DNA of 32,296 bases from an uncultured Gemmatimonadota bacterium (GTDB lineage: Bacteria; GCA-2686955). Positions 2,275 to 31,701 of this stretch are shown in pieces. Under the pieces are notes generated by a model. The model worked only from the letters and a program-made list of their open reading frames with translations. It was not told the DNA's origin and ran no database searches. Within the stretch, counting starts at the first letter, position 1, and every line of letters begins with the position of its first letter. The position numbers were made by a program, and so were the translations under genes. The stretch spans positions 1 through 32,296 of the forward strand of contig CAZBBK010000067.1 in the NCBI GenBank assembly GCA_964490075.1, in the 5' to 3' direction.

Positions 2275-3126
2275 TCAGGGAGCTTCGCCGCCCCCCCATC
2301 CCTCGATCAGCCGCCGCACCACCGCCGGCACCCCCTCTCCGGCCGCCAGCGCCAGATGACCACCGCCGCGGCTCTGCTCGGCCATGCGCGCGAACACGCC
2401 CGCCTCGGGGTTGATGTCGACGATCGGGATCTCCCGCCGCAGCGCCGTCTCACCGATCACCGCCGGCAGCGTGGTGGCGCCGGTGGTGCCGATCACCAGC
2501 AGCAGATCGGCCCTCCCGGCCACCTCGAGGGCGCTGTCGGAGCGACAGTTGGCCTCGGTGTAGTACTCGTCGAACCAGAGCACGTGGGGCCGCATCCAGG
2601 CGCCGCAGCGCCGGCAGTGCAGAATCTCCACCTGCTCCCTGCTCAGAGCCGGCCCCTCGCCCACGCTGTCGACCGACTCGGGCAGGGGCCGCGGGGCGCC
2701 GCCCGCGCATTCCACCGAGCAGCGCATGCGGGCGATGCTGCCGTGGATCTCGTAGATGCGCGCGTGCGAGCTGCCCGCCGCGCGGTGCAGGCCGTCGACG
2801 TTCTGCGTGACCAGGGCGAAGCGATCATCCAGCGCCCGCTCCAGCTCGACCAGCGCGTGGTGGGCCGGGTTGGGTTTCGCCGCCAGGCATTTCGAGCGCC
2901 GGAACAGATACCAGGCCCACACCGTCTCCGGATCGCGCAGAAAACAGGCCTTGGTCGCCATCTCTTCCGGCGTGTGGTTGGCGGAGCCCTGGGTCCAGAA
3001 ACCGTCGGCGCCGCGGAAGGTGGGGATGCCGCTCTCGGCCGAGATCCCGGCGCCGGTCAACGCCACCACGAAGGGATGCGCCGCGGCCAGCTCGCCCACG
3101 CGGTCCAGGAGCGAATCGTGCGTCAT
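2275..3126 (-). CDS. cobB: NAD-dependent protein deacylase (sirtuin, CobB/class III-like)
   Basis: GAGISAESGIPTFRG, TQNVDGLH, HGS, Zn-binding CSVEC/CRRC, RPHVLWFDE; YLFR fits the YxxR desuccinylase signature. ATG at 3126 overlaps the upstream stop (ATGA). Confidence 0.9.
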   Translation of the reverse strand: MTHDSLLDRVGELAAAHPFVVALTGAGISAESGIPTFRGADGFWTQGSANHTPEEMATKACFLRDPETVWAWYLFRRSKCLAAKPNPAHHALVELERALDDRFALVTQNVDGLHRAAGSSHARIYEIHGSIARMRCSVECAGGAPRPLPESVDSVGEGPALSREQVEILHCRRCGAWMRPHVLWFDEYYTEANCRSDSALEVAGRADLLLVIGTTGATTLPAVIGETALRREIPIVDINPEAGVFARMAEQSRGGGHLALAAGEGVPAVVRRLIEGWGGGEAP

Positions 3127-4574
3127 GGTTCTCTTCCTTCCAACACCAGCGCGCCCCACAGATCGGGCGTCGACCAGCACCAGGTGGAGGCATCGACCGA
3201 GTAGCACCACTGGTGGGTGGGCTCGGGCCCCAGCAAGACGACGTTGAAGGCGAGACCGGCCCCGGCGGCCCCCTCCCAGCCCGGCAGAGCCTCGGCCGGA
3301 AGCGCGACCCGCGTCCACCACCGCTCGCCCGTCTCGCCGGCGGTCATCACCTGCGGCAGCGGCCGGCCGCGGGTCGGGCCCAGGGAACGCGGCGCCGGCG
3401 GCGAGTGCGCGCCCTCCCAGAGCAGCGACCAGGCAGGGTTGCCTTCGTCCGCCGGCCCGGCACCGGTGGGCAGGGCCGACACCATGATCATCGCCAAGGG
3501 CTCGCCTCGGTCGACCTGGGGGCGATCGGGCCAATACAGGTCGAGCACCAGCCCGCGCTCGGTCCAGCCCAGCGCCGCCGCGACCCGGGGCAGATCCGCC
3601 GGCGGCGGACCCGGAGGACTGTAGATTCCGGGGCGGCTCCAGCGCAGCGGAATCGGCGTCGCCGGCGAGCCGTCGGTGAGGGCGCGGGCCACCGCAAGTG
3701 GAGCTGGCGGCTCGGCCACGTAGCGCCGCTCTCGGCGCCAGATCGAGGGCCCGATGCGGTGCAGCTCGCAACTCTCGCTGACCACCAGGAGATCCTCCCC
3801 GTCCCAGGCGATCCCTTCCGCCTGCCCGACTTCGATGCGGGAGCGCCGCGGCGGGTTCGCGAGCAAGGGCGCGCCCGGTCCGGTGCGTTCGAAAACCTGG
3901 ATCTGGTCGTAGCTGAGCACCGCCAGACGGCGCCCATCCGGGTGCAGGTCGGCGCCGGTCACCATCGAGAAGCTGGCGACCGAGTCGTTCGACTCCAGGC
4001 GCTGCTTGGCGTCGCCCACGATCGGCTCGAATCGGTAGAGACGGGTGCGGGGTTGGCTGCGGTCCTTGGTCAACAGGTGCAGGCGACCGTCGGCGAAGAA
4101 GCTGGCTTCGACGTCGAAGGGCAACCCCTCGCGCGGCGGGAAGTGCTTCTGGTCCCGATATCCGAAGGGAACGCGCCACTTCACCCGCACCGAGCGTTTC
4201 CGCCAGGGATCGGGCTCCTCGACCACGTAGATCAGAAGATTCCGTCGATCGTTCTTGTTGTTGCCGGTGTCGGCGATGTAGAGGCGGCCGGAGTCGTCGA
4301 GGGTGAGCGACTCCCAGTCCCGGTTCTGCGCGCCGCGCACCTTCACGATGCCGATGTGTTTCCCGTGGCGGTCGAAGGCGAAGAGCTCGGCCTTGCCGCC
4401 GGAATCGTTCAGGGTCCACAGCACGCCGGGGTGGCGCCGGCTCTGCACCAGGGCCGAGGGCTCCTGCAACCCCTTGGCACGCCAGCGGCGCTCCGGCGAC
4501 CACGACGAGTCGGCGGCGGCGCTCTCCGCGAGAAGAGCGGCGCAGGCCAGGAATGTCAGCGCGTGAGACAGCAA
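3123..4574 (-). CDS. Secreted protein: beta-propeller-like N-terminal domain plus possible CBM9/DOMON-like C-terminal domain
   Basis: Signal-peptide-like N-terminus; EPSAL...LWTLNDSG...DWESL...LYIADTGNN...DVEA...GQAEGIAW pattern; overlaps both neighbours as in an operon. TTG start uncertain. Confidence 0.65.
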   Translation of the reverse strand: MLSHALTFLACAALLAESAAADSSWSPERRWRAKGLQEPSALVQSRRHPGVLWTLNDSGGKAELFAFDRHGKHIGIVKVRGAQNRDWESLTLDDSGRLYIADTGNNKNDRRNLLIYVVEEPDPWRKRSVRVKWRVPFGYRDQKHFPPREGLPFDVEASFFADGRLHLLTKDRSQPRTRLYRFEPIVGDAKQRLESNDSVASFSMVTGADLHPDGRRLAVLSYDQIQVFERTGPGAPLLANPPRRSRIEVGQAEGIAWDGEDLLVVSESCELHRIGPSIWRRERRYVAEPPAPLAVARALTDGSPATPIPLRWSRPGIYSPPGPPPADLPRVAAALGWTERGLVLDLYWPDRPQVDRGEPLAMIMVSALPTGAGPADEGNPAWSLLWEGAHSPPAPRSLGPTRGRPLPQVMTAGETGERWWTRVALPAEALPGWEGAAGAGLAFNVVLLGPEPTHQWCYSVDASTWCWSTPDLWGALVLEGREP

Positions 4575-7021
4575 TGCTTGTACTTTCTACCGCTGCCACA
4601 GGGACAGGGATCGTTCCGTTTTGGGGCCCGGACGCCGGGTGCGGCGAGCGGCACGGCCTGCGCCTGCGCGATCTCGCGGCTGCGCTTGTCGCGCATGCGA
4701 ATCTCGAGCATGGCGTTCGCCGCTTCCTCTAGCTGCTGCGCTTCGCTCTCCAGAGCCGGGTTCGCTTCGATCTCGAGCTTCATGCGCGCTCGGGCGCTGG
4801 TCACGGCGTCGAGGGCCCGCTGGCAGTCGCGGTCTTCGAGGTGGGCCAGGGCGCGGATCAGGTCGGATTCCGCGGCGCGCAGCCCCTCGAGCTCGCTCCA
4901 GGCGTCGCCGATGCGGCCCAGGGCCAGCAGCCGCCGCGCCTTCAGCATCCGCGCCGCGGGAAGATCGGCATCGTAGCCCTCGGCCAGGAACGCGCGCACG
5001 CTGGTGAACGCGCTGCCGTCGGCGGCACGCAGCTGCGCCGGGCGCAGCCCCGGACGGTCCCTTTCGGCCACCAGTGCCATCGCCGAGCTGACCAGGGGCG
5101 CCAGCTCGTCCACCGCATCGCAGCAGGGGCAGCGGATGGAGCTGCCCGGCAGCACTCCGGCGCTGCCGTTGGTGCTCTGCACCAGCTCCGGATCGACCGC
5201 GACCCGATCGACCGGCGCGGCGGAGATGCGGCCGCAGGCGCTGCAGCGCAGCTCCAGCCAGCCATCCGGAAGTTCGCCCTGCTCGCCGCTCTTGGTCCCC
5301 GTGCGCACCACTTTTCGGAGCCGCTCCATGACCTCGGCGTCGGCGCCGACCAGCGCCGCCAGGGCCAGGGCGTTGGCCGCCGTACGCGGCGTGCGCGGCA
5401 CGCATTCGGCGATCATCCGTTCGCAGATCCCGGCGTGAGGCAGGCGCTGGACCAGCGCCACCAGCGACTCCATGTCGGCGGCCGCGCAGCGCTCCCAGTC
5501 GCCGGCCAGGCGTTCGGCCCAGGCGTCGCGGGTGGGGCTGGCGGCCAGCACGCGCAGCGCCCGCGCCCGGCGCCATTCCTGGTCCCCGGTCAGGAGCTCC
5601 TCGATCTGTTGCGCGAACTCCTCGAAGCGGAAACCGACCGCGCGGCAGGCGCGCACCAGGCGCGGTGCGTCCACCTCCTCCGCGTCCAGCGTCGACCGCA
5701 CGAAGCCGATCCCGCGCTCGTCGCCGCAGGCCACCAGCAGCAGCAGTCCGGCGTGGGCCTTGCTCAGGTCGCCGTCGGTCCAGAGCTTCCCGGCCGCTTC
5801 GCGGATCGCCGCCTCGGCGTCTTCCGCGGGCCGGGCGCTCCCCGCCTCGGAGAGATGCCCGGCCAGACGCAGGGCGCGCAGCGCGAGCTCTTCGCGGTCG
5901 CCCGGCGAGAGGTGATCGCTGCCCAGGGCCACCAGCACCGTGTCGAGCGACGCGTCCCAGCGCGGCAGCGGATCGGGGCGCGGCGCGCGCGCCCGGCGGC
6001 GCCGCTCGGGCGACAGACGCAGCCTCGATCCGGCCGCCACCAGCGCCGCCCAGGGCATCATGATCGGCGGCACGCTGCCGGATCGCTGCAGGGCGGCCAG
6101 TGCCCGCAGCAGCGCGGCCGGCAGCTCGGCGCGCGGCGGCGGATCCTCGATCACGTCGTCGAGATCCTCCAGCAGCGCCCGCAGCACCGGCACCCACTGC
6201 CCGGCGGCGGCCCGCTCCTGCAACCCCTCGACCTCGACACCCGCCGCGCCCAGATGCCGCAGGGCCGGCGTCAACCAGTTCGTCGCCGTGGCGGGCCGCG
6301 GCTGGCCGAGCTCTCGAAGGTCGGGCGCCTCGATCTCGCGGTCCTCCGCCAGTCCCAGGAAACCGGCGATCAGGACCAGGGCGAACCAGTGGGTCACCGG
6401 CGGCTCGGCGTCGCCGAAACGCTGGTGGCCGACGCTCACCAGGATCGCCGCGGCGGGGGCGAAGTCGAGCTCGACCACCGCGTTCATCAGCGAAGGGATC
6501 ACGTCGACCGCCTCGGGCGCGCCCCGCCCCCCCTCTCCGAGCAGCCGCTCACACGCCGGCCCGAGGATCGACGCGTCGCCCGATTCGAGCGCCCAGAGCA
6601 AAGCCTCCGCCAGCGCCTCGGAGAGGCCGCCGGCGCCGGCCTGGTCGCTACGCCGCAGGTGCTCACTCAGGGCATCGTTGACCCGCTCCGGCGCCAGCCA
6701 GCGCAGCGTGGTCAGGGCGCCTTCGTGACCCACCCTCGCGCGTCGCGCCACGTGGTCCGCCAGGCGCCCGATCAGGGCGTCGTCGAGAGGGGCGGTCAGC
6801 CGCGGCGCCAGTTCGGAGAGCGAGCGCAGTGCCGCCCGCTGCACTCTCTGATCGTCATCCTCCAAGAGCTCGATCGCGAGCTCGGCGGCCGCTTCGCAGC
6901 GCGTGCGCTCCCACATCAGCAGGGACGCCGCCCAGAGACGCGCTTCGGCGACCTCGTCGGCAGCACGTGCTCGGAGCACGGACAGATCGTGGGGGCAGGA
7001 ACCATCGAGGAGCGTAGACAT
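4556..7021 (-). CDS. Large helical-repeat protein with a Zn ribbon and C-terminal SEC-C motif
   Basis: C-terminal RNDPCPCGSGRKYKHCC; CSAC...CPCC pair; HEAT/TPR-like helices. ATG 7021 has a GGAG upstream and is preferred over the track start at 7057. Confidence 0.8.
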   Translation of the reverse strand: MSTLLDGSCPHDLSVLRARAADEVAEARLWAASLLMWERTRCEAAAELAIELLEDDDQRVQRAALRSLSELAPRLTAPLDDALIGRLADHVARRARVGHEGALTTLRWLAPERVNDALSEHLRRSDQAGAGGLSEALAEALLWALESGDASILGPACERLLGEGGRGAPEAVDVIPSLMNAVVELDFAPAAAILVSVGHQRFGDAEPPVTHWFALVLIAGFLGLAEDREIEAPDLRELGQPRPATATNWLTPALRHLGAAGVEVEGLQERAAAGQWVPVLRALLEDLDDVIEDPPPRAELPAALLRALAALQRSGSVPPIMMPWAALVAAGSRLRLSPERRRRARAPRPDPLPRWDASLDTVLVALGSDHLSPGDREELALRALRLAGHLSEAGSARPAEDAEAAIREAAGKLWTDGDLSKAHAGLLLLVACGDERGIGFVRSTLDAEEVDAPRLVRACRAVGFRFEEFAQQIEELLTGDQEWRRARALRVLAASPTRDAWAERLAGDWERCAAADMESLVALVQRLPHAGICERMIAECVPRTPRTAANALALAALVGADAEVMERLRKVVRTGTKSGEQGELPDGWLELRCSACGRISAAPVDRVAVDPELVQSTNGSAGVLPGSSIRCPCCDAVDELAPLVSSAMALVAERDRPGLRPAQLRAADGSAFTSVRAFLAEGYDADLPAARMLKARRLLALGRIGDAWSELEGLRAAESDLIRALAHLEDRDCQRALDAVTSARARMKLEIEANPALESEAQQLEEAANAMLEIRMRDKRSREIAQAQAVPLAAPGVRAPKRNDPCPCGSGRKYKHCCLTR

Positions 7022-18247: not shown

Positions 18248-20275
18248 TCAAGGCACGATCCGGCAGGCATCCGCCGCCACCCGGGTCGAGCCGTAGGCCT
18301 CGCCGGTGACGTCGACCACCGCGACGATGTTGCGGCCGGATTTGAACTCGAAGCGGCCGAGCGAGACCCATTCGTCGAAGTAGCGGCTCTGGTCGACCTG
18401 GTGGGGGCCCTGCCAGCCGCCGGTGGTCCGCAGGTAGTAGTGGGCGCTGCCGGTGGTGGCGTAGTTGGCGGGGATGTGGACCTGGACCTGGTAGCTGCGG
18501 GCGGCGGTGTCGAAGAGCCAGGCGGCGGCGTTCTCGTAGGGCATGGAGGAGATGTTCCAGGTCCAGCGGGTGGAACCACCGTAGCCCCAGCCGGTGGCCA
18601 GCCACCACTGATCGGGCGGGCCGACCATGCGGAAGTTCGGATCGTCGTTGTCGACCACCACCACGCCGCCATCTCCCTCGCATTCGTCGGTCGGCCAGCC
18701 CATGTTCTGGTCGGTCCAGAAGCTCTCGGGACCGGAGCAGGTGCCGGCGAAGGGGTCGTCGAGCGGATAGCCGTAGCGCAGCACCTCGAAATGGAGGTGG
18801 GGACCGCTGGAGTTGCCCGAGTTGCCGCTGCGGCCGACCTCGTCGCCGCAAGCCAGCGCCGAGGCCTGGGTCGGCGTGCCGGCCTGCATGTGGGCGTAGA
18901 TGGTCTGGCCGTCGCCGTGATCGAGCCTGATCATGTTGCCGAAGCCGCCGCAGTCGGTGTTGCCGGGCCAGCCCTCTCCGAAGCCGTCGCAGCGCATGCT
19001 CACAAGGCCGTCGGCGCCGGCGTAGATATGGGTCCAGCGCGGGGCGCCGATGTCGGTGCCGCGGTGGCCGTTGTAGCTGAAGCCGCCGCATTTCCAGTCG
19101 AGCACGCCGGCGCCGGCGTCGTTGTCGTAGTAGGCGGTGTAGCCGGGGTGATAGGAGAGCGGGAAGCGGAAGGTGGTGGAGGGCACGGGATCGGGTCCCC
19201 GCGGGGGATGTGGCGGCGGCGCGGGGAGCTCGCGAGCGGGGCCGGAGCCGGCGCCGGAGCCGGCGGGGATGCGCCGCAACGGGTCGGCGGGCGGCGCCAG
19301 GTCGGCGGCCAGGGGGCGGAAGCGGGTCGGATCGGCGCCGCTCGCGATCACCAGTCGCTCGGCACCGTCGGCGCCGGGGCGGCGCGCGACCAGCTCGCCG
19401 GCGGCGCTGAAACCGGGCTGGCGGCCCGGGCCCAGCTCGCGCAGCTCGCCGGAATCGAGGTCGGCCCACCAGAGCGTGGGGGCGCCGGCGCCGGGCGCGC
19501 ACCAGGCGAGTCGGTCGCGGTGGGGCGAGATCGCCAGAGAGCCGTCGGAGGTCGGTGGATCGAGGCCGTCGGCACGGCCGCGAAAGAGCGCCCGCGGGGT
19601 GCCGCCGGGGCGATCGAGAAGGTAGAAAGAGGCGCGGCCGCTGCGCGCGCCGCTGGTGAAGAGCAGTGCTCCGCCGGGCAGCGGGCGCGGCCGGCTGTCG
19701 TCGACTCCGTCGGTCCAGGGGATCGGCTCGCCGCCGGACAGATCGATCGCCTCGATGCGCAGAGGCCCCGGAAAGGCCGCCGGCGCGCGTGCGCAGCGCG
19801 CCACGAAGAGCCAGCGACCGCAGGGCGAGAAGCACGGATCGACGGCACCCTCGAGGGTCATCCGAGGCTCACCGCTGGCCGCTTCGCGCAGCTCGACCGC
19901 GAGCTCGCGGGTCCAGATCGCCACCAGCTCGCCATCGGGCGAGAGGCGGGCATCGACCACCCGCGGCCGCCCCTCGAGCACACGCGGCTCGCCGGGACTG
20001 CGCGAGGAGAGCAGCACCAGGTCGGTGCCGAGCAGCGCGTCGGAAGCAGCCCGGCGCGCGTCGGCACGGGTGACTCCCAGCACTCTGAGCTCCCCCCGCG
20101 GGCCGCGCGCCGCGGCGCGCAGCGCCACGACACCGGGCGCCGGCAGCCGCCGCAGACCGTCGGCGACCACGATCGCCTCGCCCTTGGCCGTCAGGGTAGC
20201 GGGGACCGGCTCTGCGCCGGCCGGCAGCGCCGGAGCCAAGAGCGCGAGGCGGAGAAGTGCGCGAGAGACACCCAT
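18248..20275 (-). CDS. Secreted M23 metallopeptidase with N-terminal TolB-like propeller and C-terminal golvesin-like domain
   Basis: AAGGAG RBS before ATG 20275; signal peptide; LSPDG/FSPCG repeats; HRGTD, YAH and HLHFE Zn motifs; VVVDNDD...WVSLGRFEF...AADA tail. Confidence 0.85.
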   Translation of the reverse strand: MGVSRALLRLALLAPALPAGAEPVPATLTAKGEAIVVADGLRRLPAPGVVALRAAARGPRGELRVLGVTRADARRAASDALLGTDLVLLSSRSPGEPRVLEGRPRVVDARLSPDGELVAIWTRELAVELREAASGEPRMTLEGAVDPCFSPCGRWLFVARCARAPAAFPGPLRIEAIDLSGGEPIPWTDGVDDSRPRPLPGGALLFTSGARSGRASFYLLDRPGGTPRALFRGRADGLDPPTSDGSLAISPHRDRLAWCAPGAGAPTLWWADLDSGELRELGPGRQPGFSAAGELVARRPGADGAERLVIASGADPTRFRPLAADLAPPADPLRRIPAGSGAGSGPARELPAPPPHPPRGPDPVPSTTFRFPLSYHPGYTAYYDNDAGAGVLDWKCGGFSYNGHRGTDIGAPRWTHIYAGADGLVSMRCDGFGEGWPGNTDCGGFGNMIRLDHGDGQTIYAHMQAGTPTQASALACGDEVGRSGNSGNSSGPHLHFEVLRYGYPLDDPFAGTCSGPESFWTDQNMGWPTDECEGDGGVVVVDNDDPNFRMVGPPDQWWLATGWGYGGSTRWTWNISSMPYENAAAWLFDTAARSYQVQVHIPANYATTGSAHYYLRTTGGWQGPHQVDQSRYFDEWVSLGRFEFKSGRNIVAVVDVTGEAYGSTRVAADACRIVP

Positions 20276-20303
20276 GCGGGGCTCCTTTCGGGATCCCCTC
20301 TCT

Positions 20304-20328
20304 TCAAGAATCACACAACTTTGGGCGA
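20304..20328 (+). repeat. 25-bp direct repeat, left copy
   Basis: TCAAGAATCACACAACTTTGGGCGA, identical to 24035-24059. Confidence 0.95.
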
Positions 20329-20370
20329 ATTGGGCGATTTCGCCGGCGACGGGTCGTCGCAACGCGCCGC

Positions 20371-21099
20371 CTACCGCGCGTACGCGACCCGCTCGCGATC
20401 CAGACGACGCCCCAGAGCGAGCGCGGCCAGCACCAGGAAAGAGAGAATCGCGACATAGGGCCCAAGCGCGGACCACGAGAAACTCTGCTCCCACTGGCGC
20501 AACGACGACACGGCCATATAGGCCATGAGCGTCAGCATGTAGATCACCCGGGCCAGGACCGGGCTGACGCTCAACAGTTGCAGTGCGCCCACGACCAGGC
20601 AGATCGCAAAGGCCGTCGGCGGCATCAAGAGCACGAGGAACACCAGGGCGGGGACACTCGGAAGCTGAAGCGGCGCAGGAGCGACCATCAACAGATGGGT
20701 CTCCACGACCAACAACGCGCTCCCGACGAACGCCGTGCAGCATCCGAAGCAGAGCAGAAGCAGGCTCTTGCCCAACCACAGGGAGCGCACCGGCAGATGG
20801 GTGGAAAGGACGAACTCCAGGGTGCCGGTCAGCCGTTCCTGAACAAATGCGGTATTCAGCGAGCTCAACATCACCAGGAGACACAATGACATCGCGTGGT
20901 GCGTGAGGGCGCCATCGATCAGCGCCTGGGCCATCTGCTCCCGAACCCCGTCGGGAGCATGGTACGCCGCCAAGCCATTGGCGAAGAGTAAGAGCAGCGG
21001 CAAGAGCAGCATCCCGCCGAAAGTCGTCGCTTTGTTCTTGACCTCCCTGAGGTCCTTCCACATGATCGCCCTGATTTGAGAGGTAAAGAGTGTCGTCAC
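20371..21099 (-). CDS. ABC-2 type exporter permease
   Basis: IMWKDLRE, about six TM segments, ERLTGTLEFVLSTHLPVRSLWLGK; GTG start overlaps the ATPase stop. Confidence 0.88.
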   Translation of the reverse strand: MTTLFTSQIRAIMWKDLREVKNKATTFGGMLLLPLLLLFANGLAAYHAPDGVREQMAQALIDGALTHHAMSLCLLVMLSSLNTAFVQERLTGTLEFVLSTHLPVRSLWLGKSLLLLCFGCCTAFVGSALLVVETHLLMVAPAPLQLPSVPALVFLVLLMPPTAFAICLVVGALQLLSVSPVLARVIYMLTLMAYMAVSSLRQWEQSFSWSALGPYVAILSFLVLAALALGRRLDRERVAYAR

Positions 21100-22025
21100 T
21101 AGACCCTGCCCTCCGCCAATTCGAAAACATCGTCCAGGTCAACGTGGAGGGGTTCGACTCTCTGGGCCTCGATCGACGCATCGGCCAGCCGACCGATCAC
21201 CTGAACGATCGACTGAGGGCTGCTCGTAAGCAACACTCCCGGCTCCGAGGCGCGTCCAGGGCGCAGCAATCCCAGACCGGGAATCAGAACACGGCGGCGT
21301 GAGCGGGGAAGCTCGCAGGTGCCATCGAGCCACACTCGGTATTTCCTGCCTTCGAAGCCGCGAGTGATCTCCTCGACCGTGCCGCACATCACTCCGCGCC
21401 CCTCCTGCATGAACGTGAGGCGATCACAGAGCTCCTGCACCTCTCGCAAATTGTGAGAGCTCAAGAACACGGTCCGGCCTTCTTCAGCCGACTCGGAAAC
21501 CAGCTCCTGGAAATCCTGTTGGAAATGGGGATCGATGCCGGAGGTCGGCTCATCGAACACCAGCACGGGCGGATCGGGCATCAGAGCCCGCGCCATTGCC
21601 AGCTTTCGTCGCATCCCCTTGGAGAAGGTCGAAGCTCTCTGGTTGGCGCGATCGTCTAGACCGAATCGCTCGAGAAGGGATCGAGCCCGTGCCGCGGGGT
21701 CTGGCACGAGCTGGAGCTTGCCAAAGTAGACCAGGTTGTCCAGCGCCGTGAGGCCCGCGTAGACCGTCGAGTCTTCGAGCATGGCACCGGTCGTCGTTCT
21801 CACGTTTCGGTCCCGATAGGGATCGGTTCCCGAGACCAGGACCCGGCCGCTGGTCGGCCGGATCAAGCCGAGAATCGAGCGAATCGTGGTGGTCTTGCCC
21901 GCCCCATTCGGACCCACCAGACCATAGATCTCTCCCGCCATGGCACGAACGTCGAGATCAACGACCGCATCCTTCGCGCCGTAGCGTTTGCAGAAACCGC
22001 TGACTTCAATTTGCGGATCGCTCAT
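21099..22025 (-). CDS. ABC exporter ATP-binding subunit
   Basis: GPNGAGKTT, FSKGM, VFDEPTSGID, SSH; ATG 22025 overlaps the radical SAM stop (ATGA). Confidence 0.95.
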   Translation of the reverse strand: MSDPQIEVSGFCKRYGAKDAVVDLDVRAMAGEIYGLVGPNGAGKTTTIRSILGLIRPTSGRVLVSGTDPYRDRNVRTTTGAMLEDSTVYAGLTALDNLVYFGKLQLVPDPAARARSLLERFGLDDRANQRASTFSKGMRRKLAMARALMPDPPVLVFDEPTSGIDPHFQQDFQELVSESAEEGRTVFLSSHNLREVQELCDRLTFMQEGRGVMCGTVEEITRGFEGRKYRVWLDGTCELPRSRRRVLIPGLGLLRPGRASEPGVLLTSSPQSIVQVIGRLADASIEAQRVEPLHVDLDDVFELAEGRV

Positions 22026-23425
22026 TGGAATCGAGGTTCGCCGGCGTCGAATTCCAGGCTCTTGCAAGCTCCGAGAAGCTCCTGGGCGCCATGGGCATGG
22101 GCCCATTGGCACAGGCGCCCTTCACGCTCCAATGCCGCGATGGGGCGGACCACGCAACCGGCGCAGTAGCCCGCATAGCGACAGCCTTCGCAGTCCTCCG
22201 GTCCCGGCGTCTTGAGGTTCCGCATTCTGTCCAAGATCGGCTTGCGCAGAGCTTCTTCGAGGGTCTCTCGTCGCAGATCCGCGAAGCTATCGCTTTCCGG
22301 GAGCACGATGCAAGTACGAAGCTTGGCGTGCGGAGAGAGAATGAGGTTCTTATGGCCGGCGCCGCAGTTCTCGGACCCGGATGCCCTCTGCTCCTCGTCC
22401 AGCACGGTCAGGAATCCCGCGTACTTTCTCGCCAACTCAGTTTCCATCTCGGCAACTGCCTCGACGTCGAGGCCCTGCCACCTCCAGGCCAGCTCGGTTC
22501 CGTGACCAAAGGGAGTGACAGGGCTGTAGGAAAAGAGGCGAGCGCCCAATGCCTTCGCCAGCAGCAGCGTTTCCTCGATCTTGAATGCGGACTCGGGAAG
22601 AGCGGTCATCGCCGCTCGTACGAAGATCCCTCGCTCCGCGAGCAGGCCGATCGCGCGCGTTGCCGTGGCGAAGGCCCCAGGGGCGCTGGTTCGGTCGTGC
22701 GTTTCTGCATCCGGACCGTCCAGACTGATGCCAACGAGCAGCCGATCGTACCATTGCAGCAGTTCGTCGGCGACAACGCGGTCGATCAATGTGCCGTTGG
22801 TCAGCAAGGCAACACTTCGGAACTTCCGGAAGCAGTACTCGAGGATCTCTCCGATCTGGGGATGCAGGAAGGGCTCGCCGCCCGATATTTCGATGCTCCC
22901 CAGGCCCAGGTCGGCCCACTCGTCGAGAATCGATCGCAGCTCTTCCACGTCCATGTCCCCGCAGCGGCTCTTCTCGAAGTCGTTGTAACAGTAGGAGCAG
23001 GCGAGATTGCACCGGCTCGAAACCTCGATCGTAATGTGGATCGGAACGTAGAACTCGTGGCTACCGGAAACCGGCGGCGTGCGCGCGGGAGTTTCGTGGT
23101 CGTTCAACACGATCTCTCCGCGCTGCCGCGCTTCGCCGAGGAAATCACACAGCTTCGCTGTGACCTCCGGGTGGTCGGGGATGCCCAACGCCTTCGGTAA
23201 GTCAGCGATGCGTTGCGACCCGTCGCAGAGCGACAACACCCGCGCCGCGTCATGGTTCACGCGCCAAAGCTTGTCACGAAAGGGGAAACCGGGACGCTTC
23301 GCGCCGGCGCCGGAGAACTGACGTACATAGCAGTCACCCGGTGTGAGGTGAATAGACGTCAGTTCCTCCACGCAGGGGAAGAGCGATTCGGCATTGCCGA
23401 TGAGGGCCGCGGTATCGGTACGCAT
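22022..23425 (-). CDS. RRE(PqqD)-radical SAM-SPASM peptide maturase, AlbA-like sactisynthase (467 aa)
   Basis: PqqD-like VNHDAARVLSLCDGSQRIADL; CNLACSYC; SGGEP; TNGT; ISLDG; seven SPASM Cys (CGAG, RTC, CEGCRYAGYCAGC, LCQW). Several blocks match Bacillus AlbA as recalled from memory. Confidence 0.9.
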   Translation of the reverse strand: MRTDTAALIGNAESLFPCVEELTSIHLTPGDCYVRQFSGAGAKRPGFPFRDKLWRVNHDAARVLSLCDGSQRIADLPKALGIPDHPEVTAKLCDFLGEARQRGEIVLNDHETPARTPPVSGSHEFYVPIHITIEVSSRCNLACSYCYNDFEKSRCGDMDVEELRSILDEWADLGLGSIEISGGEPFLHPQIGEILEYCFRKFRSVALLTNGTLIDRVVADELLQWYDRLLVGISLDGPDAETHDRTSAPGAFATATRAIGLLAERGIFVRAAMTALPESAFKIEETLLLAKALGARLFSYSPVTPFGHGTELAWRWQGLDVEAVAEMETELARKYAGFLTVLDEEQRASGSENCGAGHKNLILSPHAKLRTCIVLPESDSFADLRRETLEEALRKPILDRMRNLKTPGPEDCEGCRYAGYCAGCVVRPIAALEREGRLCQWAHAHGAQELLGACKSLEFDAGEPRFQ

Positions 23426-23484
23426 CAGATCCTGACCTGGCGTCGTGGGAGCGAAAGCGCATGGTGCTCCGGAAGACTCGCCTA

Positions 23485-23643
23485 CTAGGGAGAATCCTCG
23501 CAATTGTGCAGATGGACGAGGAAGGCGGAGCCGGTGACGGCCGCGCCGACCATGGGCGAGGTTCCACACGCCGCACAGATCAGGCACGCGCCGCAAGCGT
23601 TGCACTCGGGAATCGAGATCGATGAATGGCCGGGGTTGAACAT
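23485..23643 (-). CDS. Sactipeptide-type RiPP precursor (52 aa)
   Basis: GGAGG RBS 6 nt before ATG; MFNPGHSSISIPECNACGACLICAACGTSPMVGAAVTGSAFLVHLHNCEDSP with Cys at 14, 17, 20, 23, 26 and 48; lies directly upstream of the maturase. Confidence 0.88.
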   Translation of the reverse strand: MFNPGHSSISIPECNACGACLICAACGTSPMVGAAVTGSAFLVHLHNCEDSP

Positions 23644-23785
23644 CGTGACCTCCAGGGGGCCGCGCAAGACCACTGCCGGAAAGGGTGGGAATCCGGGCGC
23701 CGAAGCGCCATCGCAGCGGTCGCGGTGCCTGACGAAGTAGGGAATCGCCGCCACCGGATCTCGGGACGGCTGCTTCGCGAGGCGG

Positions 23786-23802
23786 CGCAGATACGGTGCC
23801 AG
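23786..23802 (-). promoter_or_regulatory. Candidate sigma-54 (-24/-12) promoter for the RiPP operon
   Basis: Minus strand CTGGCACCGTATCTGCG: TGGCAC with GG-N10-GC spacing, CTGC instead of TTGC; ~140 bp upstream of the precursor ATG. Confidence 0.55.
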
Positions 23803-24034
23803 CAAGCCATGAAGGCGCCGCGCCCCTGGCGTCAGACCGGGCTCGGGATGCGGAATCCGGGCGAAGTGGCCCAGCAGAGCCGAATTGCGCGACCAGCGCG
23901 ACGCCGTCCCTGGCACCTGAGTGCGGCCCTCGATCGCCACGCGCCGCTCTGCGGCGGACAGTTCGAGTCGTTCGGCTGCGCGCGGGACTTGCGCGGTGAA
24001 CGCCCGCGCACCGCTCTCTTCGTTCCCCTTCCGA

Positions 24035-24059
24035 TCAAGAATCACACAACTTTGGGCGA
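24035..24059 (+). repeat. 25-bp direct repeat, right copy
   Basis: Identical to 20304-20328. Confidence 0.95.
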
Positions 24060-24110
24060 TTCGGGCCGATCCAATGGAAAGCGACCCCTTGGCGTTTCAG
24101 AGGAGGCAGT

Positions 24111-25475: not shown

Positions 25476-26954
25476 ATGATCCCGAGTCGCGCGCGCCCTC
25501 TCGCCGCCCTCCTCCCCCCTGTCGTCCTGGTGGCGTGGCAGCTCTGCGCCGCGCCCGCGGCCTGCGCCGATGGAATCGGTCCCTGGCCGATCTGGGCCCA
25601 GGAGTGGAACGACGATGCCAACGACAACCGCCTCGACGACCACCTCGAGGGCTTCGGCGCGCCGGGTGAGACGGTCCTGGTCGACCTCTTCATCACCTTC
25701 GGGCGCAGCGACTGGGACGAGCGCAAGGCCGAGCTCCTGAGCGACGTGCAGGCGGTGCTCGACATGCACTCCGGGACGGTCGCCGACGACTACGAGGTGA
25801 TGCCGACGCTCCTGGTGCAGGACGCCGAGCTGCTCTACCCCCTGTGGATGGAGGGCGAAGGCTACTTCGATCCGCTGCTCTACGACCTCTTCGAGACCTT
25901 CGAGCTGCCGATCGTGATGTGCCAGTCGCTACACCGTTTCGCGCCCGCGCTCACCGACTACCTGCTCGCCGATCGCATCGCCCCCGATCTCTGGGTCCCG
26001 GCGGCCTTCCCGAACATCCCCGGGCCCGGCGCCGGCATCGCCTCGCTGGTGGCGATCGTCGACACCGGCGCCGAGGAGCTGGGCATCGACCACTACCTCT
26101 ACGCCGGCGGTTACGACGCTTTCAACCAGGTCGAGGAGGACCCGCACGATCTGAGCGCCAACAGCGGCCTCTACCACGGAACCCGGGTCGGCTACGCCGC
26201 CACCGGCTGGGATTTCGCGCCGATCGACCTCTACGGCGCCGCCCCCCTCTCGGCCTTCATCGACATCCGGGTGGCCGAGGAGGACACCGCCTACGGCGCC
26301 CACAGCGGCACCATCATGAACGCCATCAACTGGCTCTGGGCGAAGCGCGCCGACACCTTCACCGCGAACTACGGCGCGCAATTCGACGGCATCGACGTGG
26401 CCAGCATCAGCTACGCCGACATGGGCCCGGTGGCGCACCGCTTCGTGCCGGGCTCGGGCGACTGCGCCACGATCGCGCCCTCCGACGGCAACGATCCGAT
26501 CTCGTTGGCGGCCGACACCCTCTCCGAGCTGGGCGGGGTGTCGGTGGTGGCGGCGGCCGGCAACTGCGGCACCTATCCCACCACCGGCTTCGGCCAGCTG
26601 GCGGCGGCCGACGAGGTGATCACGGTCGGCGCCTACGACATGGCCGACCCGGCGACCCGTGCCGACGACCTGATCTTCGACTGGACGAGCCACGGCCCCG
26701 GCCCGCAATCGACGCCCAAGCCAGATCTGGTGGCCCCCGGCGCGGTGCTCTTCGACCAGGGCACCTCCTTCGCCGCCCCGCAGGTCGCCGGGGCGGTGGC
26801 GCTGCTGCGCGAGATCGACCCCCTGGCGACCCCGGCCGAGATCAAGCAGGCGCTGATCGAGAGCGCGGTCAAGGCGCCGGGCTACTTCCAGCACGACGAT
26901 CACTGGGGGCACGGTCTGCTGGACGCGGCGGCGGCGCGGGACTCGCTGGACTGA
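25476..26954 (+). CDS. Secreted S8 subtilisin-like serine peptidase
   Basis: AAGGAG RBS; signal peptide; IVDTG, HGTRV, AAAGN, KPDLVAPG, GTSFAAPQVAG, WGHGLLD. Confidence 0.92.
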   Translation: MIPSRARPLAALLPPVVLVAWQLCAAPAACADGIGPWPIWAQEWNDDANDNRLDDHLEGFGAPGETVLVDLFITFGRSDWDERKAELLSDVQAVLDMHSGTVADDYEVMPTLLVQDAELLYPLWMEGEGYFDPLLYDLFETFELPIVMCQSLHRFAPALTDYLLADRIAPDLWVPAAFPNIPGPGAGIASLVAIVDTGAEELGIDHYLYAGGYDAFNQVEEDPHDLSANSGLYHGTRVGYAATGWDFAPIDLYGAAPLSAFIDIRVAEEDTAYGAHSGTIMNAINWLWAKRADTFTANYGAQFDGIDVASISYADMGPVAHRFVPGSGDCATIAPSDGNDPISLAADTLSELGGVSVVAAAGNCGTYPTTGFGQLAAADEVITVGAYDMADPATRADDLIFDWTSHGPGPQSTPKPDLVAPGAVLFDQGTSFAAPQVAGAVALLREIDPLATPAEIKQALIESAVKAPGYFQHDDHWGHGLLDAAAARDSLD

Positions 26955-27387: not shown

Positions 27388-29015
27388 CGTTTCGTCTCCG
27401 CGATCCGGCGCAGCGTGAAATGAAAGGTCGCCCCGGCGCCCTCCTCCGACTCGACCCAGATCTTCCCCTCGTGCAGCTCCACGACCCGCCGCGCGATCGC
27501 CAGTCCGACTCCGGTTCCCGGGAACTCCTCGAGCAGGTTGAGCCGCTTGAAGGGCTGGAACACCTGCGCGGCGTAGCGCGGGTCGATGCCGATGCCGTTG
27601 TCGCGCACCCAGCAGTGGCACATCTCCCCCTCGCGGCTGCCGCCGATGTGGATGCGCGGCGCCGGCTCGCCGCGGAACTTCAGCGCGTTGCCGACCAGGT
27701 TGCGCAAGAGCCGCACCAGGTGCAGGCGGTCGCCGCGCACCGTGCACAGCTTCTCGCGGCTGATCTCGGCGCCGGCGGCCTTGATCTCCGCGCGCAGCAC
27801 CCTGAGCGCCTCGGCCAGCGCGTCGTTCAGATCGACCGGCTCGAAGCGCGGCGGCCGGGTGGAGGTGCGCGAGAGCTCCAGCAGGCTGTCGATCATCGCC
27901 TGCATGCGCCGGGTCTCGCTGACGATATGACCGAGCCAGCCCTCGACCCTCTCGTCCCGCGGACCGCCGCCCCGGATCGCGATCAGCTCGGCGAAGCGGG
28001 CCACGATCGCCAAGGGCTCCTGCAGGTCGTGGGAAGCGGAGTAGGCGAACTGCTCCAGCTCGGCATTGGAGCGCTGCAGATCGCCCGCGCGGCGCGCCAG
28101 CTCGGCCTCGGCCCGCCTCACCGCCCCGATATCGTCGACGATCACCACCGCCCGGCCGTAGTCCGGGGGATCGCCGGGCACGTTGATATGCAGCCGCACC
28201 TCGAGCCGCTCGCCGTCCAGAGTGCCGTGCACCGTCTGGGTCGCGAAGCGGGTCTCGCCCTTCAGGAGGGCCAGGCAGTTGGCGCGGAAGGTGGGCAGGG
28301 TCTCGGGCAGGAAGATTCGCTGCAGCGAGTCCAGGAGCTCGTTCTTCGACTCCGCCTTGTGCATGCGCAGCGTGGCCGGGTTGACATCGAGGATTCGCAC
28401 CGTCCCCAGCAGCTCGTCCAGCACCGCCGGGTCGCTGTCGAGATGCTTCTCCAGCGCGTCGCCGTGGCGCGCCTCGAGCCGCTCCAGCGCCTTCTTGAGC
28501 TCCCAGAGATCCTCCTCCCAGATCGCCACCGGCGCCCCCTCCGCCAGGGAGCGGTAGCGCGCCTCGCGCAGGCGCGCGCTGCGCTGGGCGCTCTTGCGGG
28601 CCGAGAGATCGTGGACGATTCCGCAGACGCCCTTCAGGCTGCCCTCGGCCGAGAGGATCGGCGCCAGGCTGATGCGCACCGGGATGCGCCGTCCGCTCTT
28701 GGCCAGGCGCACGGTTTCGTACTCCTCCACCCGCTCGCCGCGCCGCATCCGTGCCAAGATATCCATCCCCTCGTCGCGCAGCTCCTCGGGCATGAGGATG
28801 GTCAGATCGCGCCCCAGGATCTCCTCGGCTGTGTAGCCGAAGAGCTTCTCCGCGGCGGGGTTCCAGCTGCGGATGGCGCCCTGGCGGTCGACCGAGATCA
28901 GCGCGTCGGGGGACGCGGCCACCAGGGCGGCCAGCTCGGCCGCGGCCTGCTCGCCGGAGGGGACCGGCGCGGCGCCGGAAGAGCGGCTTCCTGTTTCGAG
29001 CTGCTGGGGGCTCAT
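27384..29015 (-). CDS. Cytoplasmic PAS-PAS sensor histidine kinase (Cph1-type kinase core)
   Basis: WNPAAEKLFGY PAS, second PAS (IWEED...VNPATL), FAYSASHDLQEPL, NLVGNALKF, DNGIGI, GTGVGLAI; start at ATG 29015. Confidence 0.92.
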   Translation of the reverse strand: MSPQQLETGSRSSGAAPVPSGEQAAAELAALVAASPDALISVDRQGAIRSWNPAAEKLFGYTAEEILGRDLTILMPEELRDEGMDILARMRRGERVEEYETVRLAKSGRRIPVRISLAPILSAEGSLKGVCGIVHDLSARKSAQRSARLREARYRSLAEGAPVAIWEEDLWELKKALERLEARHGDALEKHLDSDPAVLDELLGTVRILDVNPATLRMHKAESKNELLDSLQRIFLPETLPTFRANCLALLKGETRFATQTVHGTLDGERLEVRLHINVPGDPPDYGRAVVIVDDIGAVRRAEAELARRAGDLQRSNAELEQFAYSASHDLQEPLAIVARFAELIAIRGGGPRDERVEGWLGHIVSETRRMQAMIDSLLELSRTSTRPPRFEPVDLNDALAEALRVLRAEIKAAGAEISREKLCTVRGDRLHLVRLLRNLVGNALKFRGEPAPRIHIGGSREGEMCHCWVRDNGIGIDPRYAAQVFQPFKRLNLLEEFPGTGVGLAIARRVVELHEGKIWVESEEGAGATFHFTLRRIAETKR

Positions 29016-30083: not shown

Positions 30084-30198
30084 TCTGCGCGGGGCCTGAA
30101 CAGAGGGGGTCGTGGCGGGACCCGCCGGGAGCGCCCGCGATCGGCGCAAAAGCCCGTGACACTGCAAGATATCCGCGCATCGCCGGGCCCTCCCGAGC

Positions 30199-30214
30199 TG
30201 GCATGCCGATTGCG
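30199..30214 (+). promoter_or_regulatory. Sigma-54 (-24/-12) promoter
   Basis: TGGCATGCCGATTGCG: GG-N10-GC with TTGC, 60 bp upstream of ATG 30274. Confidence 0.7.
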
Positions 30215-30273
30215 TAGTAGGCGGCCGAACCGTGCCGCCGGTGCACGGGACGCGCAGCCAAGGGGATTCCGCC

Positions 30274-31701
30274 ATGCTTCAGCGACAGATCCATCGGGTG
30301 AGCTTCGCCGCCGTCATCACCCTCCTCGTCACCAGCTCGCCGCTCGCCGCCGAGCTAGACCAGTACATGGGCTACCTCGACCTGCACGACGAGGATCGGG
30401 TCACCGGCCGCTTCACCATCGGACCCGACGACGAGGGGCGCCTGTGGTTCTGGACCCCGGAGGGCAACGCCTTCTTCGGCTGCGGCGTCAACAAGATGTC
30501 GAGCCACTGGATCGAAGCCTTCAACCGGCAGGACTGGGTCGACACCTACCAGGGCAACCGCTGGATCTGGGGCGAGCAGCAACGCGAGAAGCTGCTCGGG
30601 TGGTCGTTCAACAGCATCGCCTACCGCTCGATCTCCGGTCCCTCCGACGACCGTTTTCTGTTCGGCGATCCGCGTCTCTACCGGCGCATGCAGCTGCCCT
30701 ACGCCCCGGCGATCTTCTTCACCGCGCACGGCGACATCGAGCACCTGGTGCCGGGCAGCCGCGAGGACTTCCTGCGCGATCGCTATCCCGACGTGTGGAG
30801 CGACGAGTGGGCCGAGCTGGCCGACGTGCGCGCCGAGCGGCTGATCTCGCAGGTCCACTCCGATCCCTTCCTGATCGGCTACTACATGGGCGAGGAGCCG
30901 CACACCGGCTACAGCTACGAGTGGGGCAAGATCTGGGCCGACTACATCATCGATCTGTCGCCCTCGGCGCCGGGCAAGGCCGAGTGGGTGGCGATGATGG
31001 AGGAGCTCTACGTGGAGCCGGCGGAATTCAACCAGGTCTATGGCGACAGCCTCGGCTACGACATCGCCTACTTCGACGAGCTCTTCGACGTGATGGAGCT
31101 GCGCATGGTCTCCGAGGATGCCGGCGAGTTCACCGGGCGCATCATGTCGCAGTACGCCCAGGTGGCGCACTCAAAGATCCGCAAGTACGACTCCGAGCAC
31201 CTGATCCTCGGCATCCGCAACATGTGCAACCACGACCACCTGAACAAGGAGGTGCTGGACGCCTACGCCCCCTACGTCGACGCATTTTCGTTCAACGCCT
31301 ACGGCACCAATCCCGACAAGTGGGACCTCATCTACGACTACTACCAGAAGCCGATCATCATCTCGGAAACCTCGTACCTGGCCGACGACACCGGCTACAA
31401 CAACGATCCCTATCCGCGGGTGCCGAATCAGCGCCAGCGCGGCCGCACCTATCGCTGGCTGGTGACCGAGCTGGCATCCAAGCCCTTCGTCATGGGGATC
31501 TGGTGGCACGCCTACTACGACCACGGCGAAGACACCCACTGGCGCAACTGGGGGCTGATCGATCCCTTGACCGACACTCCCTACCAGCAGTTCCTCGACT
31601 ACGCCCAGCCGACCAACGAGATGCTCTTCGACATCCACAGCGGCTTGGTGGAGAAGAGCTGGTGGGGGACGCCGATCGGCCACGTGCGCGCGCCGCGCTG
31701 A
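30274..31701 (+). CDS. Secreted clan GH-A glycoside hydrolase (GH50 / agarase-like)
   Basis: Signal peptide; GRLWFWTPEG..FF..GVN, WSFNSI, DPFLIGYYMGEEP (acid/base), IRKYDSEHLILGIR, KPIIISE (nucleophile), NWGLID. Substrate unknown. Confidence 0.75.
   Translation: MLQRQIHRVSFAAVITLLVTSSPLAAELDQYMGYLDLHDEDRVTGRFTIGPDDEGRLWFWTPEGNAFFGCGVNKMSSHWIEAFNRQDWVDTYQGNRWIWGEQQREKLLGWSFNSIAYRSISGPSDDRFLFGDPRLYRRMQLPYAPAIFFTAHGDIEHLVPGSREDFLRDRYPDVWSDEWAELADVRAERLISQVHSDPFLIGYYMGEEPHTGYSYEWGKIWADYIIDLSPSAPGKAEWVAMMEELYVEPAEFNQVYGDSLGYDIAYFDELFDVMELRMVSEDAGEFTGRIMSQYAQVAHSKIRKYDSEHLILGIRNMCNHDHLNKEVLDAYAPYVDAFSFNAYGTNPDKWDLIYDYYQKPIIISETSYLADDTGYNNDPYPRVPNQRQRGRTYRWLVTELASKPFVMGIWWHAYYDHGEDTHWRNWGLIDPLTDTPYQQFLDYAQPTNEMLFDIHSGLVEKSWWGTPIGHVRAPR

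Follow-up and report, generated by a model that had tools for sequence, protein, structure and literature searches.

A four-gene operon at positions 20371-23643 on the minus strand of contig CAZBBK010000067.1, of which a stretch of 32,296 nucleotides (nt) was analysed and is referred to here as the window, appears to be a compact biosynthetic cluster for a peptide that is synthesized ribosomally and modified post-translationally (RiPP), whose product would be a nested-hairpin sactipeptide of the AlbA/ThnB type. The probability that we give to this interpretation, which was drawn from sequence comparison, is approximately 0.65. The operon encodes a Cys-rich precursor of 52 residues, a maturase of 467 residues belonging to the radical S-adenosylmethionine (SAM)/SPASM proteins, and an ATP-binding cassette (ABC) transporter composed of an ATP-binding protein and an ABC-2 type permease. 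The cluster is a predicted new member of the AlbA/ThnB-type hairpin sactipeptides and is placed outside the thurincin H and subtilosin peptide families, because the identity of its maturase to that of thurincin H is low (24%), the maturase scores below the cut-off of the AlbA model, and the precursor has no match among curated families.

The precursor peptide and its maturase

The four genes are co-oriented head to tail, and the last three overlap stop-to-start, as the initial annotation had described. The precursor gene (23485..23643, minus strand) starts with an ATG at 23643, ends with a TAG at 23487-23485, and has a GGAGG ribosome-binding site (RBS; 23649..23653, minus strand) located 5 nt 5' of the ATG. 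It constitutes the 3' part of a longer mechanical open reading frame (ORF) at 23485..24045; both its own RBS and its masking within that frame had been recognised in the initial annotation and were recovered here. The maturase gene (22022..23425, minus strand) begins with an ATG approximately 60 nt downstream of the precursor. The ATG of the ATPase gene (21099..22025, minus strand, 308 residues) overlaps the TGA of the maturase gene as ATGA, and the permease gene (20371..21099, minus strand, 242 residues) starts with a GTG that overlaps the TAG of the ATPase gene as TAGTG and is preceded by GGAGGG 8 nt upstream.

All four genes are found in identical order in a genome of another genus within the same family (G003). 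The nucleotide similarity between the window and G003 is confined to 20367-23389 and 23497-23653. Over the four-gene set, the synonymous divergence (dS) is 0.8-0.9 and the ratio of non-synonymous to synonymous divergence (dN/dS) is 0.10-0.18, with 0.114 for the precursor and 0.179, 0.138, and 0.105 for the other three genes. Such ratios at a dS of approximately 0.85, together with frames that are intact in two genera, indicate long-term purifying selection after the split.

The two precursors are equal in length and 85% identical, with 19.2 synonymous changes against 10.8 non-synonymous changes. Their homology comprises the RBS, the 52 codons, and the stop codon, and collapses directly upstream of the RBS and past the stop; G003 has GAGGAG at the position of the RBS in the window. 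The eight amino-acid differences all lie outside the Cys ladder described below, and none of them falls at a proposed acceptor position. The dN/dS of 0.114 and the limitation of the homology to the RBS, the ORF, and the stop show the precursor gene to be genuine and subject to purifying selection. It is present as a single copy in each of the two positive genomes, namely the window genome (G000) and G003.

After a short leader of approximately 13 residues, the precursor carries the ladder CxxCxxCxxCxxC, consisting of Cys14, Cys17, Cys20, Cys23, and Cys26. The ladder is followed by a 17-residue putative acceptor segment rich in Ala, Gly, Thr, and Val, and then by a C-terminal tail containing a sixth Cys (Cys48). 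The peptide has neither Lys nor Arg, and ends in Asp-Ser-Pro. No Pfam or NCBIfam family was found for it, and no curated precursor family matched even at E-values up to 10.

The reference for comparison was the thuricin 17 region of Bacillus thuringiensis HD-1 plasmid pBMB431 (NZ_CP004877.1). A tblastn search of the maturase against plasmids returned 35 records, 32 of which are from Bacillus; the 25 records listed are all from Bacillus and show approximately 24% identity over 85% of the query. On pBMB431, four tucA genes annotated as 'thuricin17' are accompanied by genes for a radical SAM/SPASM protein, an S8 peptidase, an ABC-2 permease with its ATPase, a GntR regulator, and one more ABC transporter, which is the gene content given for the thn cluster of thurincin H in the available part of PMC8172795. 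In the 40-residue tucA product, the Cys residues and the acceptors coincide exactly in position with those of thurincin H, whose bridges are C4-S28, C7-T25, C10-T22, and C13-N19 (PMC8172795, same part). The first tucA copy of the plasmid (4684-4809) is a variant with Ser in place of the second ladder Cys and one additional Thr in the acceptor segment.

The initial annotation had called the precursor thurincin H-like, and this likeness was reproduced. In a single BLASTP comparison, the window precursor and the thuricin 17/thurincin H precursor (P0167) shared 8/16 identities at an E-value of 8e-5; the identity over the alignment is 28%, which does not amount to a close family relation. The four donor Cys residues of thurincin align with C17-C26, and the first residue of mature thurincin aligns with Cys14. 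The thurincin acceptors T22, T25, and S28 align with A34, T37, and A40, and the position opposite N19 is a gap of one residue that separates M31 from V32. When the precursors of the window and G003, the thuricin 17/thurincin H precursor, and a 58-residue reading of the ORF that precedes the maturase gene in a Bacteroidales metagenome-assembled genome (MAG; locus L009) were aligned, six positions were invariant, which are the four Cys residues C17, C20, C23, and C26, the ladder residue A24, and A35 in the acceptor segment. The five-Cys ladder is common to the window and Bacteroidales peptides, and the Cys48 tail is restricted to the window and G003.

In the Bacteroidales locus (JAFTXI010000023.1, 1468-3644), an ORF ending in CxxCxxCxxCxxC lies upstream of a maturase with 32% identity to that of the window, and a small membrane protein is encoded between them. 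The flanking translations were read by eye as an extracytoplasmic function (ECF) sigma factor, the anti-sigma protein that goes with it, and a TonB-dependent receptor. The maturase of this locus is split by an in-frame TAA at 3060-3062, where its relatives have Ala or Val.

Several other candidates for precursor relatives were rejected. Weak tblastn matches in G002, another genome of the phylum, and in G003 share a 63-residue frame, and the match in G002 is out of frame inside a longer ORF. A degenerate-DNA scan of metagenomes for the Cys ladder gave at least 119 stretches, and tblastn detected no maturase at any of the 80 loci listed; nearly all of these loci were trinucleotide-repeat noise, and one look-alike (L124) was an out-of-frame match within a longer, unannotated ORF.

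In the maturase, the radical SAM domain was detected by Pfam with an E-value of 1.7e-23. The CxxxCxxC motif (C139/C143/C146) and seven C-terminal Cys residues (C354, C372, C412, C415, C421, C424, and C439) are invariant in 72/72 family members. A putative PqqD-like region, of the RiPP recognition element (RRE) type, occupies approximately residues 46-110 at the N-terminus.

The best NCBIfam model for the maturase is that of AlbA (NF012164), with 196.5 bits and an E-value of 5.3e-58, which is ahead of the next model by 94 bits. AlbA was represented in the comparisons solely by this model and by no AlbA sequence. The match is one continuous colinear stretch, from residues 111-445 of the maturase onto positions 95-433 of 442. 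The colinearity with AlbA that had been proposed from short motifs was thus recovered as a continuous match, and the motif blocks themselves, SGSHEF, KFRSVALLTNGTL, GIFVRAAM, LGARLFSY, NCGAGHKNLILSP, and CQWA, are all present in the translation. The other models scored 102.5 (MftC), 101.3 (StsB), 93.4 (ScmF), 91 (AhbD), 87.5 (NirJ2), 72.9 (SkfB), and 55.8 bits (PapB). The PapB score is far below its cut-off of 340 bits, so that no ranthisynthase match was obtained. The MftC score is likewise below its cut-off (TIGR03962, 265 bits), and the precursor ends in Asp-Ser-Pro, not in the Val-Tyr that ends the mycofactocin precursor according to the available part of PMC10288494; no mycofactocin system is indicated. 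All 72 family members match the AlbA model at an E-value of 1e-30 or better, and none of the relatives reaches its cut-off, the best E-value being 3.5e-112.

The radical SAM/SPASM protein of pBMB431 was taken as the equivalent of the thurincin H maturase and is referred to as the ThnB equivalent. Its score on the AlbA model is 152.8 bits, which is below that of the window maturase. An hhalign comparison of the 72-member family profile with the ThnB equivalent gave a probability of 100% and an E-value of 2.1e-55 over 407 columns, starting from window residue 46, which indicates that the alignment takes in the N-terminal domain. The PqqD-like domain of ThnB is reportedly required for thioether formation. 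Against the PDB, the family profile matched SkfB best (1.8e-55), followed by PqqE (1.4e-28), CteB (4.8e-26), anSME (1.4e-19), and SuiB (4.5e-17); SkfB was also the best match for the single maturase sequence (E 1.3e-19).

In a quick IQ-TREE tree of 40 rows, the window maturase, 33 family members, and the ThnB equivalent form a clade of 35 rows with an SH-aLRT support of 97, and all five references (MftC, AhbD-like, ScmE, ScmF, and StsB-family) fall outside it. A FastTree tree of 147 rows agrees with weaker support (70). Representatives shorter than 400 residues were left out of the larger tree, and for the smaller one 32 of those that remained were selected manually. The outgroups were labelled by NCBIfam: L014 (StsB family, 887.9 bits) and L017 (ScmE, 415.5 bits) score above their cut-offs, L003 (ScmF-like) and L006 (AhbD-like) lie just below, and MftC was taken from an annotated plasmid record. 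The window maturase, its G003 counterpart, and P0003 make up a trio with 100% support, which is nested in a clade of 16 rows (96-99%). A long branch in another part of the family clade carries the ThnB equivalent. A grouping with SPASM enzymes that do not act on peptides, such as anSME and NirJ, had been named beforehand as an outcome that would speak against the proposal; the maturase does not group in this way, as shown by its AlbA and SkfB matches and the clade with a support of 97. The AlbA-like assignment of the initial annotation is therefore upheld by the 94-bit lead and the hhalign result.

The family was further delimited by sequence searches. A HMMER search of 1.84 billion representatives found 310 clusters at an E-value of 1e-30 or better, the best being P0003 (56% identity) and P0018 (41%). 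In a word-indexed search, only four proteins rose above the generic radical SAM background, namely P0002 (76% identity), P0003 (56%), P0004 (32%), and P0005 (32%). A scan of the genome collection with the maturase alignment, which used generic patterns, yielded one family member, the Bacteroidales locus, and the other 79 loci retained had E-values of 1e-28 or weaker. A look-up with P0003 gave nearest clusters mostly from Bacillota and also from Bacteroidota and Fibrobacterota, which is a lead only.

The two remaining genes agree with the ABC transporter that had been annotated. The ATPase matches Pfam ABC_tran at 6.8e-29, and its NCBIfam scores for the DrrA subfamily (198.8 bits) and the lantibiotic-protection ATPase (157.6 bits) are both below the cut-offs; it shares 31% identity with its ABC counterpart in the thuricin 17 cluster. 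The permease has matches below cut-off to Pfam ABC2_membrane (E 0.0019) and to the MutG-type lantibiotic immunity permease (E 0.0018), and its hydrophobic 19-residue windows form approximately five separate stretches, some of them overlapping. It is 84% identical to its counterpart in G003, with the dN/dS of 0.105 given above, and shows no detectable similarity to the permease of the thuricin 17 cluster.

Proposed maturation and competing explanations

In the proposed pathway, the short N-terminal leader of the precursor would be bound by the putative PqqD-like domain at the N-terminus of the maturase. The SAM-binding [4Fe-4S] cluster at C139/C143/C146 would then be used to take a hydrogen from the α-carbon of each acceptor residue, and two SPASM auxiliary clusters, held by the seven conserved Cys residues, would serve to join the sulfur of a ladder Cys to that α-carbon. 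According to the alignment with thurincin H, the predicted pairs are C26 with M31 or V32, C23-A34, C20-T37, and C17-A40. If the register of three residues is extended, the extra Cys14 could form a fifth, outermost bridge near V43. The leader would be cleaved near E13/C14 by a protease encoded elsewhere, and the ATPase and ABC-2 permease may export the peptide across the inner membrane, protect the producer, or both. In this scheme, we infer how the leader is bound, the chemistry at the α-carbon, the pattern of bridges, the part played by the transporter in export or immunity, and any antibacterial activity of the product.

Several observations weigh against the sactipeptide interpretation. The maturase scores far below the equivalog cut-off of the AlbA model (850 bits), which indicates that it is not an AlbA orthologue. 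With Pfam, the SPASM domain is detected in 61/72 relatives and is sub-threshold in the window maturase (E 0.013), and its PqqD match at residues 52-103 is also sub-threshold (E 0.033; 15 bits, where the cut-off is 23.4), 15/72 relatives passing an E-value of 0.001 for that domain. Single-sequence and profile searches of 5.8 billion called proteins, the latter using a three-sequence precursor alignment (A4) with 52 profile positions, found only the G003 copy as a relative of the precursor, and the one further relative, found by eye, is in the Bacteroidales MAG whose maturase carries the in-frame TAA. A promoter scan of the window found no sigma-70-like promoter on the minus strand, no credible terminator was found 3' of the operon, and the conserved four-gene block contains no leader protease, in contrast to the thn cluster, which has one of the S8 type. 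The conserved C48 and the 9-residue tail have no role in the proposed pathway. As to the chemistry, the identity between the window maturase and the ThnB equivalent is only 24%, and the part of the SPASM tree around AlbA, ThnB, and SkfB is a polyfunctional neighbourhood, as it also includes enzymes of C-O, C-C, and rearrangement reactions (PMC10288494, in the part available), so that membership of the clade alone cannot fix the chemistry.

For this reason, six 'catalytic site proximity' positions were also compared. They were taken from the available part of PMC10288494, mapped through a StsB-family homologue, and compared by eye. The homologue shows the Y, T, I, S, K, and L of that paper at the expected offsets, and the mapping is therefore considered valid. 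The residues are Y-S-L-S-I-V in the window maturase, Y-T-L-D-T-M in the ThnB equivalent, Y-T-I-S-K-L in the StsB family, L-G-S-S-P-F in MftC, and F-F-T-S-H-Q in CteB, the last as given in the same paper. Read by eye, the profile of the window maturase resembles those of ThnB and StsB more than those of MftC or CteB, and leans towards the hairpin sactisynthase group; that of ScmE, F-S-L-S-N-I, is also fairly close to it.

These last points are also those that would favour a RiPP operon of different chemistry, in which the thioethers are formed at β- or γ-carbons as in ranthipeptides, or in which a mixture of linkages includes a cross-link or disulfide at Cys48. The polyfunctional neighbourhood, the low identity to a proven sactisynthase, and the similarity at the six positions to ScmE, whose chemistry is not known, are compatible with such an outcome, as are the sixth Cys and the C-terminal tail, which have no counterpart in thurincin H. 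However, the ranthisynthases score far lower, with 55.8 bits for PapB and an E-value of 4.8e-26 for CteB against 1.8e-55 for SkfB, five of the six active-site positions differ from CteB, and the spacing of the donor ladder and of the candidate acceptors copies that of thurincin H. We consider this alternative unlikely. A different objection is that the Cys-rich protein is no RiPP precursor and serves as a metal- or Fe-S-binding protein or a redox partner, the maturase acting on another substrate and the ABC pair serving to export some unrelated compound. Metal binding by CxxC repeats is possible, and the precursors weakly match the model of the DVU_1557 family redox protein, with E-values of 0.19 and 0.092. 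These matches are far below the cut-off and not significant, whereas the peptide aligns with a proven sactipeptide precursor, is encoded directly upstream of an enzyme that has a putative PqqD-like peptide-binding domain and belongs to a family with 72/72 matches to the AlbA model, and is paired with a maturase again in the Bacteroidales MAG. This explanation is very improbable.

The operon might also be a recently transferred, non-functional passenger that makes no product in its host. This would agree with its foreign composition, its patchy occurrence in the phylum (2/5 genomes), the failure to find a promoter, and a block that lacks protease and regulator. The DNA of the window is present in four runs of one marine-metagenome study, and no RNA run is listed among them. 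Recent decay is nevertheless difficult to reconcile with four frames that remain intact in two genera at the dN/dS and dS given above, or with the retention of the RBSs and of the translational coupling, and a passenger of this kind is very unlikely.

Relation to known systems and significance

The thurincin H/thuricin 17 cluster (thnA1-3/tucA, thnB, thnP, thnD/E/T, thnR, and thnI), compared through pBMB431, resembles the window operon in several respects. Each precursor combines a short leader with a donor ladder of CxxC spacing, which directly follows a Pro-x motif, and with an acceptor segment of small residues; four donor Cys residues and three of the four acceptor positions align. Both systems have a radical SAM-SPASM maturase, homologous from end to end and with an N-terminal RRE that is putative in the window maturase, and an ABC ATPase with an ABC-2 permease. 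However, the window precursor has five ladder Cys residues where thurincin has four, together with a 9-residue tail that holds the sixth Cys, and it occurs in one copy instead of three or four. The window block has no S8 protease, GntR regulator, ThnT-type ABC transporter, or ThnI, and its host is a diderm of a five-genome phylum, not a Bacillus.

The maturase of subtilosin A, AlbA, has the same domain order and belongs to the best-scoring curated family, whereas the window precursor is not subtilosin-like and genes of the AlbE/F type, which belong to the alb operon and serve head-to-tail cyclisation, are absent. SkfB (PDB 6EFN), the sactisynthase of the sporulation killing factor, is the best relative with a solved structure. 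Its match ends at profile position 391/463, before the last five SPASM Cys residues of the window maturase, and it makes one thioether, unlike the ladder proposed here. In the available part of PMC8172795, SkfB is described as having a twitch domain with a [2Fe-2S] auxiliary cluster. StsA/StsB of Streptomyces sparsogenes (PMC10288494, in the part available) is a hairpin sactipeptide system from a high-GC bacterium with a similar profile at the six positions. In contrast to the window maturase, the StsB family is MftC-like and lies outside the clade, and StsA/StsB differs further in that the RRE is a separate protein (StsC), the acceptors are Gly, and the donor spacing is CxCxC. A StsB-family maturase was also found in Spongiactinospora sp. 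TRM90649 (L014; NZ_JARLTC010000056.1, 3689-5146), with 887.9 bits against a cut-off of 625.

The initial annotation regarded low-GC Firmicutes as almost the only source of characterised sactipeptides, a premise that is now outdated. The Streptomyces sactipeptide StsA/StsB was proven in 2023 (PMC10288494, part available), genome mining had predicted sactipeptide clusters in Proteobacteria (PMC8172795, part available), and the Spongiactinospora enzyme belongs to the StsB family. The view that a high-GC host is unexpected is weakened by StsA/StsB and by this enzyme. The claim of novelty holds in one part: no description of this cluster or of a sactipeptide with a five-Cys ladder was found in the literature searched, where the RODEO and sequence similarity network datasets of PMC10288494 may list the family. 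It does not hold for the class, which is already known; the cluster opens no new class, and 3,421 clusters presumed to encode sactipeptides or ranthipeptides have been catalogued (PMC10288494, part available).

The characterised AlbA/ThnB-type sactipeptides are from Bacillus and its relatives. The window operon suggests that the enzyme and the logic of the Cys ladder have passed into a marine lineage that is Gram-negative, high-GC, and uncultured, where purifying selection has maintained them. A bolder version, which we regard as rather doubtful, combines a five-rung sactionine ladder in a diderm of a barely sampled marine phylum with capture of the operon by site-specific insertion, a Cys48 tail that adds a sixth link or a new function, and an ABC-2 pair that delivers the peptide to the periplasm only. 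If this is true, the five-rung product would carry more bridges than any hairpin sactipeptide described, one beyond thurincin H, and, because delivery would reach only the periplasm, its role may differ from that of a classical secreted bacteriocin. The system is compact, with three parts (precursor, one enzyme, and one transporter), and suits heterologous production. The natural ladder of five donors would test how many nested bridges one enzyme can install, and the operon offers a case for how a diderm cell handles a hydrophobic bridged peptide.

Host and genomic setting

The host genome has 5.7 Mb in 136 contigs, a completeness of 95%, and a GC content of approximately 70%. BamA was detected with 493.6 bits against a cut-off of 297 and LpxC with 250.1 bits against a cut-off of 187, which suggests that the host has an outer membrane with lipopolysaccharide. 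The host is not a Firmicute, and its description as high-GC was accurate. The phylum is represented in the collection searched by five species genomes, all of them fragmented assemblies. The maturase was found in two of these, G000 and G003, and was not found in G001 (83% complete), G002 (84%), or G004 (95%).

The operon was probably acquired horizontally, judging from its anomalous composition, its differing flanks, and a direct repeat around it; its presence in only two of the five genomes was also counted for this origin. The GC content of the cluster is 62.3% and that of the rest of the window is 71.4%, and the GC content at third codon positions (GC3) is 0.73-0.83 in the cluster against 0.88-0.94 in neighbouring genes. 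In G003, the corresponding GC contents are 59.3% and 64.7%. The flanks differ between the two genomes. An unannotated neighbour gene in G003, read by eye as an aldehyde dehydrogenase, has its G000 counterpart on another contig with 80% identity, and the neighbours in the window, an M23 peptidase and a flavin-oxidoreductase-like gene, are on other contigs in G003.

The direct repeat is 41 nt long. Its first copy (20295..20335) lies 36 nt past the permease stop and approximately 25-65 nt upstream of the start codon of the M23 peptidase gene, and its second copy (24026..24066) lies upstream of the precursor at a distance of approximately 380 nt, with 45 nt between it and the flavin-oxidoreductase-like gene, which is divergent. 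The copies are 85% identical with a perfect core of 25 nt, which occurs only twice in the 5.7-Mb genome and is absent from G001-G004 at up to 3 mismatches. No flanking repeat was found at the G003 copy of the cluster, no recombinase or transposase was found near the cluster, and no tRNA was found in the window. An empty site was not recovered: neither G002 nor G003 has the M23 peptidase gene next to the flavin-oxidoreductase-like gene, and the contig of G001 ends too soon. The repeat could be an insertion scar, or a duplicated upstream element such as a promoter or operator, the latter because the first copy directly precedes the start of the M23 peptidase gene.

The non-coding leader region upstream of the precursor (23654..24025, minus strand) lies within the segment bounded by the repeat, and the promoter is presumed to be located here. 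No nucleotide homology to G003 and no Rfam match were found in this region. The spacer between precursor and maturase folds no better than its shuffles (z = −0.29).

Directly downstream of the cluster, the M23 peptidase gene (18248-20272, minus strand) encodes a secreted protein with a C-terminal Golvesin_C domain (E 8.5e-14), and is conserved in G001, G002, and G003 with a protein identity of 51-58%. Two genes upstream of the precursor, and not within the block that G003 shares, lies an S8 subtilase gene (25476-26954, plus strand). A protease of the S8 type is used in the thurincin H cluster (PMC8172795, in the part available). Part of the window subtilase is 72% identical to its counterpart in G001, which has no cluster, and the gene is therefore probably resident. 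Two further ORFs on the plus strand, at 27577-27930 and 30160-31701, have a strong GC3 coding signal (0.97 and 0.92, respectively) and no Pfam match; the former has an unusual composition, with a GC content of 0.47 at first and 0.69 at second codon positions, and the latter has a lower overall GC content of 64.5%.

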